Positions 41,266-64,000 of a stretch of 64,000 nucleotides of DNA are shown piece by piece. The stretch lies in contig OX597827.1 of the NCBI GenBank assembly GCA_951406725.2, positions 39,184,001 to 39,248,000 on the forward strand, written 5' to 3'. The position numbers were made by a program. This stretch comes from Octopus vulgaris (lineage: Eukaryota). Position 1 is the first letter of the stretch; each line of letters opens with the position of its first letter.

Positions 41266-44200
41266 GCTGATGCTGATGGCTTCTTTATTTACCACAAGAG
41301 CAATAAAAATAGGCAAGGCAATATATTACAAGACAATTGAAATCAATAACTGTGTAATGAAAAAAATATGGTTTGAAAACATATATATATACATATAAAT
41401 AATCCTTTCTACTATGTGTATATAAATAATAATGGTTGTTTCTAACATAGGCACAAGGTCAGAAATTTTGGGGAAGAAGAAAATCAATTCAATTGCCTCC
41501 CTCCTCCCAACGATGAAAGACTAAGTTGACCTCAGAATGTAAAAAGCTAGAACAAATGTTGAAAAGCATTTTGTTCAAACTCTAATGATTTTGCTAACCC
41601 ACCACTCTATACTAATAATAATAATAATAATAATAACAATAATAATAATAATAATAATAATAATAGTTACAAATTTTTAGTGGAAATAGTAGAATTTGTT
41701 ATATCAACCCCAGTACTTGACTGGTACTTTATTGTATTGACAATGAAAGGATGAACAGGCAAAGTTGACCTTGGTAGGATATGAAATCAAACAATAGTAG
41801 TTGTAATTATAATAATAATAATCATAATCATAATAATAATAATAATCATAATCCTTTCTACTGGAAGCACAAGGCTTCAAATTTAGGGGAAGGGATTAAG
41901 TCGATTACATCAACCCCAGTGTGTAACTGGTACTAATTTTATCAACCCCAAAAGGATGAAAGGCAAAGTCGACCTTGGCGGAATTTTGAAGTCAGAACGT
42001 AACGGCAGACGAAATACTACTAAGCATTTCACCTGGTGTGCTAACAATTCTGTCAGCTTGCCGCCTTAATAATAATAATAATGATTTATTAATTAGGTGC
42101 AAGAATCCTTTGTCTTTTTTGCAGGAAGCTTGCAAGAAGTTAAGTAAGAGTCAGGGCCTTGTTGAAGGACAAGGCATAGAATTATTTGATTGTAGTGATA
42201 CCTAAGTTGTAAACATCAGTTTTTGAACCACTTAGCTCTTGCACATTATCAGTACAACAACAACAAACAATTGTAAAAATAATAATGACAATAATTTCCT
42301 TATTAGAAATAGGTGTGTGTGTGATGATTTTTATGGTAAATATCCTTATAGCTACTGAAGAGTTGTGGGAGGAATAGGTGTTCTTCAAGCCATACTTCTG
42401 TGCACTTTTATTGTTCATTATTAGTAGCTTTACACCTATTGTATTGAAGTAGTAGTAGTTATAGTAACAGTAGTAGTAGTAGGGGCATGTCACAACAAGA
42501 TATGACCAGGTATATGTCACAATGGAATATGACCAGGCACATGTCACAATTAGATATCACCAGTTACACATCACAATGAGATATGACCAGTCATGTGTCA
42601 CACCGAGATATGACCAGGTACATGTCATAAGGACATATGACCATTTGCCATGTCACACTACAAAATATGACTGGTATTATATCAAAATGTGACTTGCTTT
42701 TTTTTTATTTAATTTTTTTCTCCATATTTTTTTCTGATTAATTTTATAATAATAAATAACTACTAAGTAAAAACACCACACCCATAATGAACCAAAGAAA
42801 GAAAATAAAAAAATAGAAATTTACCCCAATTCTTCCAAAAATGCAAATAAAGAGCTTAAAGAAAAAGGGTTATCTTCAAATTATATATAATCATATATAA
42901 CCTATATTCAACTAGTAACAACATTATTATTAAATTACAATATTTATATTGTCAATTATCATTATTAAACTACTTATATGTACTCTAATCAAAACTATTA
43001 TTATTATTGAAAGTAAAATTAGTAGTAGTAGTAGTAACAGTAGTAGTACTTTGCACAAGATTAGTTTCTACCTTGAATAGGCAGGAAGTATAGTTTATTG
43101 AATTAAACCTCTTGGTATATAACTGGTATAATTAATAAAATGACTTTGTGTTCTTCCACATTTTGAGAAATGTAAGAAGAAAAAAAAGTCAAATTATGGC
43201 AGGATTCGAACCTAGTGCATTGAAGATGGAAACTAAATACTGCAGGTCATTTAGTCCGGTGCGCTACATTTTTAGAACCTATTCAGCTCCCCCTCCCCTC
43301 CCACCCTATTGCAGGATGTTTCCATTATTAATAGCATGATAAAGGAAGAATTAGGACTTCTCAAAGTTATGTATGAAAGCAACGCTAGATTTGTTTGTGT
43401 ATGTATAGTTACTTGTGTATATATGTGTGTGTGTATTTTCATGTGGTTGGATGCGTAAGTTATCTTATACAGGCGGGATTTTGTTAATCTATTAAGACAT
43501 ATATATATATGTGTGTATATATATGTGCGTGTATATATATATATATATATACACACAGGTATATATGTATATATGCATATATATATATACATATACATTT
43601 ATATATATGTAATATATAATATATACATATATATATATGTATATATACATAAAAATCAAATTAAATTAAGAGACCGCAATAATATTCTTTTTTCTTCTTT
43701 TTCTTACACGTGTACCAGTTGATATATATGCTAGGTTAATTTTACTGATGCGGTGTATATTACTCAGTGATCGTCCCCTTCTGGTTGAGTCTGAATCATT
43801 CCTGTCTGAGAGCATCTCCTGTTCAGAAAGCCACAATAATTCTTTTACTGGTGACCTCCGGCAGCGTGACCTCGATCGTGGATTGTTGAAGGAGTCAGCT
43901 GATAAATAGGGAGATGTTGGTGTACCTGCTCTCTTTGTTGGTGGTGTTGAGTTCGCACGAGGTAGTGGCAGTGGAGGTGCACTCGTATCCTCAGAAACAA
44001 CGATTTTAGGCCGTGGAGGAATTTTGGTCTTTTGATGGCTACTGTTCTCACGAGATGATTTATTGGAGTGCAACCACAGAGCCGTGTCTATCTCGCACGA
44101 ACTCTCAGTTGCAGTAGACAACTGTGACAAATTATGGTGCTTCTTCTTTTTCCTCTGCCTCTTCTTTCGCTTTGTCAGTGGTGTGGTATCTGAGAAAGCT

Positions 44201-62200: not shown

Positions 62201-64000
62201 TGTTCTTACCTGAACTAAAGTGGGATCTTTCTCCTTCCAGTCATTATCCTCTTCAAGAGCTGAATATTCCAAGTCGTAATCTGATGGTTCAATTCTGACT
62301 GATGTCACATCATCACCAACACTTTCTTGGACAATATTCTCAGAAGTAGATATTGATTTAAATTTCTTCACATCAATACTTTTTGTACCAACATTTTGGT
62401 CTTTGGATTTTCCATCATCAGGAGTTTGGTCTTCAGTACTCAGAATATCAGCATCTTCAAGAGGATCTGACGCAGTGTCTTTCCAAGATTCTAAGAAAGT
62501 CTTTTCAGGTTCTTCCACTTTTGTTCTTACCTGAACTAAAGTGGGATCTTTCTCCTTCCAGTCATTATCCTCTTCAAGAGCTGAATATTCCAAGACGTAA
62601 TCTGATGGTTCAATTCTGAGTGATGTCACATCATCACCAACACTCTCTTGGACAATATTCTCAGAAGTAGGTATTGATTTCAATTTCTTCACATCAATAC
62701 TTTTTGTACCAACATTTTGGTCTTTGGATTTTCCATCATCAGGAGTTTGGTCTTCAGTACTCAGAATATCAGCATCTTCAAGAGGATCTGACGCAGTGTC
62801 TTTCCAAGATTCTATGAAAGTCTTTGCAGGTTCTTCCACTTTTGTTCTTACCTGAACTAAAGTGGGATCTTTCTCCTTCCAGTCATTATCCTCTTCAAGA
62901 GCTGAATATTCCAAGTCGTAATCTGATGGTTCAATTATGACTGATGTCACATCATCACCAACACTCTCTTGGACAATATTCTCAGAAGTAGGTATTGATT
63001 TCAATTTCTTCACATCAATACTTTTTGTATCAACATTTTGGTCTTTGGATTTTCCATCATCAGGTGTTTGGTCTTCAGTACTCAGAATATCAGCATCTTC
63101 AAGAGGATCTGACACAGTGTCTTTCCAAGATTCCAAGAATGTCTCCACAGGTTCTTCATATTTATGTTTTACCTGAAATAATGTAGGGCCTTTTTCTTCC
63201 CAGTCATTATCCTCTTCAAGAGCTGAATATTCCAAGTTGTCTATTTGCACAGACATCACCTTAGAAACACCTACTTCCCTTATAACATTTTCAGAAGTGG
63301 GAGTACTAATGTCAGGAATGTTTGAATATATCACAGTATTTATGTTTTTTCCATCATTAGTGTTGTCATAGGTTGGTATTTCCACATCTCTTGTTAGAAT
63401 ATCAGCATCTTCAAGAGGATCTGATGCAGTGTCTTTCCAAGATTCCAAGAACGTCTGCACCGGCAATTGATGATATTCAACAACTTGTAGTTTGGACGGA
63501 TCTTTCTCTTCCCAGTCATTATCCTCTTCAAGAGCTGAATATTCAAGATTCTTCTCATCTGTAGCTGCATCGTTTTTTCCATTTTCAGAAGAATCTAAAA
63601 GATTTTCATTCTTTAAAATTTCATGAGTATTTATTTCTCTATCTACAGAATGTACTGTTTCCCCAGAACTTTCAGGATCTTGGGACTCATCTCCATTCAT
63701 TAACAGCTGTGTCGTGATGTTGTTTATTTCACTGTGATGAATGCCAAGCAGTTCTTGTGTTCCTTGAGATGAGCAGTCGATAACTCCTGAAGTGATCTTA
63801 TCACTTTCAACTTTTGTAACCTGAGGATCTTGTCTTCTTTCAGATGTTTTTGTGTCTCCAACACCTTTGAAACTATCTTCTGATGAATAAAATTTTGACC
63901 ATATATAAAGATCTTTCCGATCTTCTTCAAGTGGTTCAGACACAGTGTATTTCCAATCAGTGCTATATTGATTTCTGTCGATCAATGATTTATAATCATC

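Follow-up and report, generated by a model that had tools for sequence, protein, structure and literature searches.

The question raised by this locus is what kind of gene would end in a single coding exon of some 20 kb. The window that we analyzed, a stretch of 64,000 nucleotides from Octopus vulgaris (assembly GCA_951406725.2, contig OX597827.1, positions 39,184,001 to 39,248,000 of the forward strand), carries on its minus strand a giant open reading frame (ORF) that runs off the right edge of the window at position 64000. A sequence-only reading of the window had described a giant exon, uninterrupted over more than 20 kb, that encodes an acidic repeat protein and had proposed that it belongs to a neuronal cytoskeletal scaffold of the ankyrin, MAP1B/Futsch, or nesprin kind. 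We found that such an exon is indeed there, essentially without interruption, but that this family assignment does not hold. Instead, predicted gene models suggest that the ORF probably makes up the greater part of the terminal coding exon in a TDRKH/Papi-type octopus gene, with a giant disordered C-terminal extension that would act as a tether or scaffold.

The ORF is divided between two minus-strand frames:

60104..64000, minus strand: upstream frame of the giant exon, with 1,298 stop-free codons (64000-60107) followed by a TAA at 60104-60106.
43666..60120, minus strand: downstream frame of the giant exon, with 5,484 stop-free codons (60120-43669) and a stop.
43666-43668, minus strand: terminal TAA stop codon, which is also the endpoint of database models P0003 and P0004 (see below).

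It had been assumed that the exon was one frame of about 6,775 amino acids, still open at the window edge. The size and coordinates were right, since the stop-free codons of the two frames sum to 6,782, but the frame is not single, and it is open only on its N-terminal side, at 64000; on the C-terminal side, it is closed by the true stop at 43666-43668. From the regional base composition, stops would be expected at 7.4% of codons, or about 504 in 6,782, and we observed none in the 5,484 codons of one frame or the 1,298 codons of the other (log10 probability of no stop, -184 and -43.5, respectively). Stop-free runs reach at most 228 codons in the other 43.7 kb, whichever of the six frames is read, and the window contains no N. 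In the non-repeated part of the ORF, the GC content of the three codon positions is 46/37/29% and G makes up 30% of first versus 10% of second positions; the flank, by contrast, has a symmetric composition. Furthermore, comparison of the repeat units that the ORF encodes gave a ratio of nonsynonymous to synonymous differences (pN/pS) of 0.47 (mean pN, 0.051; mean pS, 0.108; 190 pairs), a value computed from 20 units with exact 107-codon spacing, with 12 of the 32 anchors excluded (indels, frame break, array ends). These stop statistics, the codon periodicity, and pN/pS support the conclusion that the giant ORF is real coding sequence under protein-level selection, and to that extent the original description of the exon was correct.

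To identify relatives, each frame was searched separately; neither the two frames nor any exons were joined, and database models were taken as returned. A word-based search with residues 2600-5484 of the long frame, over proteins of 3,016 to 9,597 amino acids, returned two proteins, P0003 (6,301 amino acids) and P0004 (6,410 amino acids). The tail of P0003 is identical to that of the window at 2,851 of 2,856 residues without a gap, and that of P0004 has 2,698 identical and 151 mismatched residues, with 29 gap columns in 6 indels. Both share the C terminus of the window ORF, so that in those models the protein ends with the stop at 43666-43668. At the other end, the window edge falls 696 residues into a stretch that looks uninterrupted in P0003 and P0004, and the models place a splice acceptor about 2.1 kb upstream of the edge, just before VLNSEGFGSTESL. 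The part of the exon in the window is about 20.3 kb long, and the whole would come to about 7,478 codons (22.4 kb) if the 696 upstream codons are free of introns.

Upstream of the window ORF, and outside the window, the models contain KH_1 and TUDOR domains. For P0003 and P0004, the only precomputed Pfam entries are PF08263, PF00567, PF02296, and PF00013, and our own scan of the N-terminal 512 amino acids of P0004 found TUDOR with an E value of 7.7e-24 and KH_1, in two stretches, with an E value of 5.6e-19. The closest solved relatives of this N-terminal part are the extended Tudor (eTudor) domain of TDRKH (6pi7 [1.7e-21], 5j39, and 6b57), Drosophila Papi (5ygb), and Bombyx Papi (5vqg). Multi-Tudor proteins were the next-best matches to the Tudor region in a search with the KH-Tudor region, which also returned two shorter models, P0007 (257 amino acids, Octopus sinensis, uncharacterized) and P0005 (626 amino acids, Argonauta hians, hypothetical). 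Both start with a hydrophobic stretch of about 20 residues, as read by eye, followed by KH-KH, and P0005 goes on past KH-KH, taking in the Tudor domain and then about the first 120 residues of the long stretch. In three predicted models from three taxa (P0003, P0004, and P0005), the Tudor domain leads directly into the same long stretch.

Canonical TDRKH/Papi, in the animals studied, is a scaffold of about 500 to 600 amino acids; it sits on the outer membrane of mitochondria, where PIWI proteins and PNLDC1, the trimmer of PIWI-interacting RNAs (piRNAs), dock to it. The octopod models resemble TDRKH (TDRD2)/Papi in domain order, with a hydrophobic N-terminal stretch (a putative anchor) followed by two KH domains and then a single extended Tudor domain, and this Tudor domain is closest to the solved TDRKH/Papi structures. 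They differ in what follows: canonical proteins end soon after the Tudor domain (for example, P0012, a KH-KH-Tudor protein of 517 amino acids), whereas here some 7,000 or more disordered residues come after it, and the window itself holds none of the domains that define the family. The anchor-KH-KH-Tudor order of the models is also the TDRKH architecture given in one study (PMC6411938), according to which the transmembrane region directs the protein to mitochondria and the protein docks MIWI and PNLDC1.

These models bear directly on the earlier proposal that an isoform of an ankyrin, MAP1B/Futsch, or nesprin/spectraplakin, serving as a neuronal cytoskeletal scaffold, has the ORF as its giant exon. 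That proposal named upstream exons from a non-cytoskeletal family as evidence that would speak against it, and KH_1 (twice) and TUDOR, with TDRKH/Papi as their solved relatives, are what the database models carry upstream. Neither the Pfam lists of P0003 and P0004 nor our own scans contain the features of a giant ankyrin (ANK repeats and the ZU5-UPA-death module). Likewise, no Pfam match to the N-terminal or light-chain regions of MAP1, or to spectrin repeats, CH, or KASH, was found in the window ORFs or the models, and the ORF ends in a basic, soluble tail rather than in a hydrophobic membrane anchor. What the octopus exon does have in common with the giant exons of ankyrin-G/B, Ank2-XL, and Futsch/MAP1B is its great length as a single exon and an acidic, repeat-rich, disordered projection, possibly a spacer or brush; only size, acidity, and disorder are similar, we found no sequence similarity, and in the models the octopus exon is joined to an RNA-binding and Tudor module with a putative membrane anchor. 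We therefore give the cytoskeletal assignment almost no credence. The neuronal part of the proposal is likewise unsupported.

Several points weigh against the TDRKH/Papi assignment as well. The link between the ORF and the KH and Tudor exons is made by predicted gene models only, and those exons lie outside the window. The NCBI annotation of O. sinensis gives the anchor-KH-KH part as a separate protein, the 257-residue P0007, and the Argonauta model P0005 ends shortly after it enters the long stretch. When the middle part of 1,200 amino acids (residues 2629-3828 of the long frame) was used in an exhaustive profile search, the single match among 1.84 billion representatives was its own cluster (that of P0003). 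Read literally, moreover, the TAA at 60104-60106 breaks the frame, so that translation would stop about 2,000 amino acids into the stretch and leave 5,484 codons untranslated. Finally, the function of the tail is something that we infer.

The stand-alone P0007 and the early end of P0005, about 120 amino acids into the stretch, together with the fact that P0003 begins at the Tudor domain, would be expected if the ORF were a separate or alternative product, that is, if it had its own transcription unit or were an alternative terminal exon at a locus that also makes a short TDRKH, with the fusion not being the main protein. However, the passage from the Tudor domain into the same stretch recurs in all three of P0003, P0004, and P0005, and the ORF has no visible start of its own, being still open at 64000, where both long models are already 696 residues into the stretch. 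In addition, the first ~120 amino acids of the stretch, which include GWADDFPWAWAYNEEES, are 86.7% identical between Argonauta and Octopus (P0005 residues 497-615 and P0004 residues 610-730) versus 65% for the KH-Tudor part, and within the extension this piece may be under the tightest constraint. A separate product thus seems to us possible but unlikely.

The break between the two frames involves two overlapping features:

60113..60119, minus strand: 7-bp insertion relative to the other repeat units (placement ambiguous within 60110-60121), present in 1 of 18 pattern-matched units.
60072..60132, minus strand: 61-nt GT..AG segment (GT at 60132-60131, AG at 60073-60072), each side being read in its own frame.

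The break falls within one 321-bp unit of the more N-terminal of two repeat blocks (block A, below). Of the 18 pattern-matched 321-bp units, 17 read GTGAAGAAATTT (or end in TTG instead), and the remaining one, at 60133, reads GTGAAAAAAGAAGAAATTT. The inserted bases resemble an imperfect tandem copy of GAAGAAA, and they shift the frame by +1. P0003 contains one short unit with the junction GTK-K-SVGDD, and excising 60072..60132 restores the frame and yields exactly this junction, whereas P0004 reads through and has no short unit. The excised segment may be a genuine mini-intron, or else a workaround of the annotation. As the P0003 junction is explained by the 61-nt skip, the source DNA of P0003 probably carries the same 7-bp insertion, which the gene model then skips. 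An insertion probably common to both favors a real variant over an assembly slip, an argument tempered by the possibility that the window and P0003 assemblies are not independent.

Should the insertion be disabling, most of the exon would now be 3' untranslated sequence on its way to decay. The in-frame TAA at 60104-60106 fits this idea, as does the likeness of the insertion to replication slippage of a 7-mer, unlike a homopolymer error; so does the finding that P0003, with a different unit count and five tail differences, has a junction explained by a 61-nt skip at the same site. Against it, the 5,484 downstream codons are without a stop or a further shift and are 99.8% identical to P0003, and P0004 reads through. 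By a rough estimate made by hand, in which 10 to 15% of neutral changes are stops or frameshifts, a dead frame of 16.4 kb would stay intact only up to a divergence of about 0.1%. Because such a frame would be so short-lived, the insertion arose recently or is polymorphic, unless it is an error or is skipped by splicing, and we regard a decaying or untranslated exon as improbable. A run of six A residues (60116-60121) lies at the break, where a lysine tRNA could re-pair one base downstream, in the direction that restores the frame; no stimulatory feature was seen there. Programmed +1 slippage on this run was considered and, as there is no slow codon after the run, judged unlikely.

The protein that would be appended to the KH-Tudor part in a gene of the TDRKH/Papi type has a clear internal order. 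Repeat anchors and composition agreed with the N-to-C organization originally described (block A, acidic spacer, block B, about 1,900 amino acids of acidic unique sequence, and a K/S-rich basic tail), and structure predictions placed two short helices near the C terminus:

63548..64000, minus strand: acidic segment ahead of the repeats, 151 amino acids, with one YIWSKFY aromatic motif.
57781..63547, minus strand: repeat block A, 18 anchors of a 107-amino-acid (321-bp) acidic unit, spanning the frame break.
56821..57780, minus strand: acidic spacer, 320 amino acids, D+E fraction 0.275, present in P0004 but not in P0003.
52237..56820, minus strand: repeat block B, 14 anchors, with older and more diverged units, some replaced by a DVWSMFYTP variant.
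46441..52236, minus strand: unique acidic region, 1,932 amino acids, D+E fraction 0.21.
43669..46440, minus strand: K/S-rich basic tail, 924 amino acids, isoelectric point (pI) 9.2, K+R fraction 0.19.
44563..44673, minus strand: predicted helix over the block VAKSVVDKISSLVTSITKQVTDSLEEL, with a predicted local distance difference test score (pLDDT) of 71 to 89, conserved in P0023 (below).
43810..43851, minus strand: second predicted helix, short, over the KELLWLSEQ block, also conserved in P0023.

Tandem Repeats Finder (TRF) gave block A a period of 321 bp, with 16.5 copies and 96% matches. The acidic body has a pI of 4.2 versus 9.2 for the basic end, and six of the eight runs of at least five K/R residues sit in the K/S-rich tail. 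In a charge-hydropathy analysis, all segments and every 200-residue window of the unique part fell on the disordered side. AlphaFold2 returned a mean pLDDT of 44 and no secondary structure for two consecutive repeat units (25 aligned window copies) and a pLDDT of 48 for the C-terminal 354 amino acids (4 aligned rows), in which residues 20-56 and 294-307 formed the only two helices; as these alignments are shallow, a low pLDDT speaks less strongly for disorder than it would if they were deep. A Pfam scan of the window ORFs gave no credible domain (Alpha_adaptin_C, Gag_p24_C, and others were below cutoffs), in line with the earlier failure to recognize a globular domain, as was the pLDDT of 44 for two units. 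The apparent matches to LRRNT_2 (3.7e-19 and 2.3e-10) are sums of weak matches to the repeated FLESWKD..DPL segment, no single stretch of which passes, and they were rejected. Searches of the Protein Atlas with two repeat units and with the 924-residue tail gave no usable match.

Although disordered, the tail is well kept. Between the two octopuses, identity is 95.9% in the KH region, 96.4% in the stretch upstream of the window, and 94.7% in the unique tail, so that conservation of the disordered tail roughly equals that of the folded KH part. A search with the C-terminal 585 amino acids returned one shorter protein, the more distant relative P0023, which is 46% identical over 505 aligned positions and reads ...NIIAV at its C terminus, the same end as that of the window ORF. 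Near-invariant blocks between the two are SSLVTSITKQVT, HTYLPLIxHLTEEEAAFSDTTP, KELLWLSEQ, and one further block of 24 residues, and two of them coincide with the predicted helices. Taken together, these results show that the polyampholyte encoded by the exon is huge, disordered, and under constraint; its body is acidic and its end basic, and it has about 32 copies of one conserved motif set and a conserved helical module at the C terminus.

A mitochondrial anchor, a KH-Tudor module, and a long disordered region bearing docking motifs are also the parts of AKAP1 (D-AKAP1)/Drosophila Spoonbill, and an A-kinase anchoring protein of this type would work in a similar way. AKAP1 has an amphipathic helix that binds the type II regulatory subunit (RII) of its kinase, and a single KH domain followed by Tudor at its C terminus. 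The pattern of this RII-binding helix is matched by the segment ISLLLSEIVAMA (51277-51312), which P0003 and P0004 share letter for letter. That pattern, however, occurs twice versus 1.4 times expected, and 209 of 500 shuffles also reached two, so that the match is not above chance. The octopod models further differ from AKAP1 in KH number and domain order, having two KH domains ahead of the Tudor domain and the disordered region, and their closest solved relatives are TDRKH/Papi. There is only a slim chance, in our judgment, that the gene is of the AKAP1 type. Tdrkh and Akap1 both appear in the list of ancient metazoan Tudor genes in PMC5381599.

Several other short motifs in the ORF were noticed. 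A basic-then-aromatic motif, KK(R)RRSP[YF]xYG..DD, occurs in two copies about 395 residues apart (46702-46725 and 45517-45531), and both copies are present in P0003 and P0004. DIFFEDE (51475-51495) is embedded in acidic sequence and is unchanged in both P0003 and P0004; we take it to be like the FFAT motif (two phenylalanines in an acidic tract), by resemblance only. Presumed resemblances of the same kind are YSAL, which is like an LC3-interacting region (LIR), NDWEE, which is W-acidic/DDW-like, VWSMF, which is WxxF-like, and RxRxxS sites.

Within the 107-residue unit, the conserved parts are LEYSALEEDNDWxEKDPTLVQV, TFLESWKDTxSDPLEDADIL, and DVTSVRIEP, and the segment between them is variable. 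The DVWSMFYTP variant of block B aligns to DVTSVRIEP. Motifs like [DE][IV]WxKFY, followed by DW-EEK, are also found upstream of the array, which suggests that the repeat unit grew from a shorter aromatic-acidic motif. The number of repeat anchors differs among sequences, with 32 in the window, 22 in P0003, which is from the same or a nearly identical species, and 16 in P0004, from a sister species. Units of block A are 96 to 100% identical to another unit of the window versus 85 to 91% identical to the best unit of P0004, while at least one unit of block B is closer to its P0004 counterpart (0.916) than to a unit of the window (0.850). As likeness of block A within the window exceeds that across species, block A is, on these identities, amplified or homogenized separately in each lineage. 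The repeats had been called lineage expanded from the outset, and the unit counts and block A identities agree. Compared with the window, P0003 lacks the spacer and three units at a junction of two similar segments, and this difference in repeat number is either a structural polymorphism that arose by unequal exchange or a collapsed assembly.

The DNA around the ORF is of a different character. As had been noted before, the interior of the ORF is poor in short interspersed nuclear elements (SINEs) and microsatellites in comparison with the flank. Apart from the coding 315/321-bp arrays, TRF found a single 27-bp repeat inside the ORF versus 24 microsatellite rows in the flank. BLAST with an interspersed element of about 400 bp, which looks SINE-like, gave 11 rows in the flank (the query and 10 copies or fragments, 66 to 87% identical, in both orientations) and none in the ORF; its copies include the following:

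8350-8766, 18978-19370, 21659-21868, 23970-24174, 31606-31929, and 33883-34081, among others: copies of the ~400-bp element found by BLAST.

A search of Rfam over the whole window returned no match. A compound (AT)n microsatellite (43499-43651, 77 copies, 77% matches) starts 15 nt past the stop codon, so that the 3' untranslated region begins in simple sequence, and the nearest AATAAA that we noticed is at about 43097. The region just downstream of the gene (34001-42000) is AT rich (27 to 29% GC versus 34 to 40% elsewhere) and dense in TA, TAA, and ATA microsatellites. Farther away, at 17600-18185, lies a compound (TA/TG)n array of about 580 bp with a periodicity of 22 to 24 bp, which produces spurious stop-free frames of 128 to 228 codons on both strands.

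What might such a protein do? If the ORF is indeed the end of a TDRKH/Papi-type gene, what follows the Tudor domain would have expanded in octopods to some 7,000 or more disordered residues, made up of amplified 107-residue units with aromatic-acidic motifs, a spacer and older units, about 1,900 residues of unique acidic sequence, and a basic, K/S-rich C terminus. Held by the N-terminal anchor, the tail would project from the mitochondrial surface as a long, negatively charged, multivalent tether or brush, the depth of which would be of the order of 100 nm (a coil-scaling estimate made by hand). It would display one docking motif some 30 times over, and RNA or the protein's own acidic blocks could be bound by its basic end. 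In this way, the tail would organize a compartment like nuage or intermitochondrial cement, or it would space mitochondria apart. The germ granule scaffolds Drosophila Tudor and TDRD1/TDRD6 are neighbors in the same pathway, and valency is the suspected principle in both cases; in those proteins, however, valency comes from many folded Tudor domains, whereas here there would be one Tudor domain and about 32 disordered repeat units.

In its strongest form, the proposal is that octopods have turned TDRKH into a protein of more than 800 kDa whose brush of about 7,000 residues builds an organelle-scale structure around mitochondria, with a length tuned by a rapidly changing repeat number. We put this forward as a speculation with the odds well against it. 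One possibility for such a structure is a nuage or intermitochondrial cement in a lineage-specific form; another is a mitochondrial spacer in large cells. To our knowledge, TDRKH is small and compact in every animal in which it has been studied, and this coding exon would rank among the longest known if the models are right. By titles and abstracts, the literature on octopus giant exons, octopus TDRKH, and cephalopod piRNA and Tudor proteins contained no description of the protein, and the main text of a mollusc small-RNA survey does not mention TDRKH, Papi, Tudor, or PNLDC1. Gene models containing the giant ORF are already in public protein sets. According to PMC6128900, expression of PIWI genes and piRNAs is ubiquitous in molluscs, so that the protein could act in the soma, including neurons, as well as in the germ line. 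If the proposal is true, octopods would offer a natural experiment on mitochondria-associated RNA granules and how these are shaped by a membrane-tethered disordered region, through its valency and the length of its chain.

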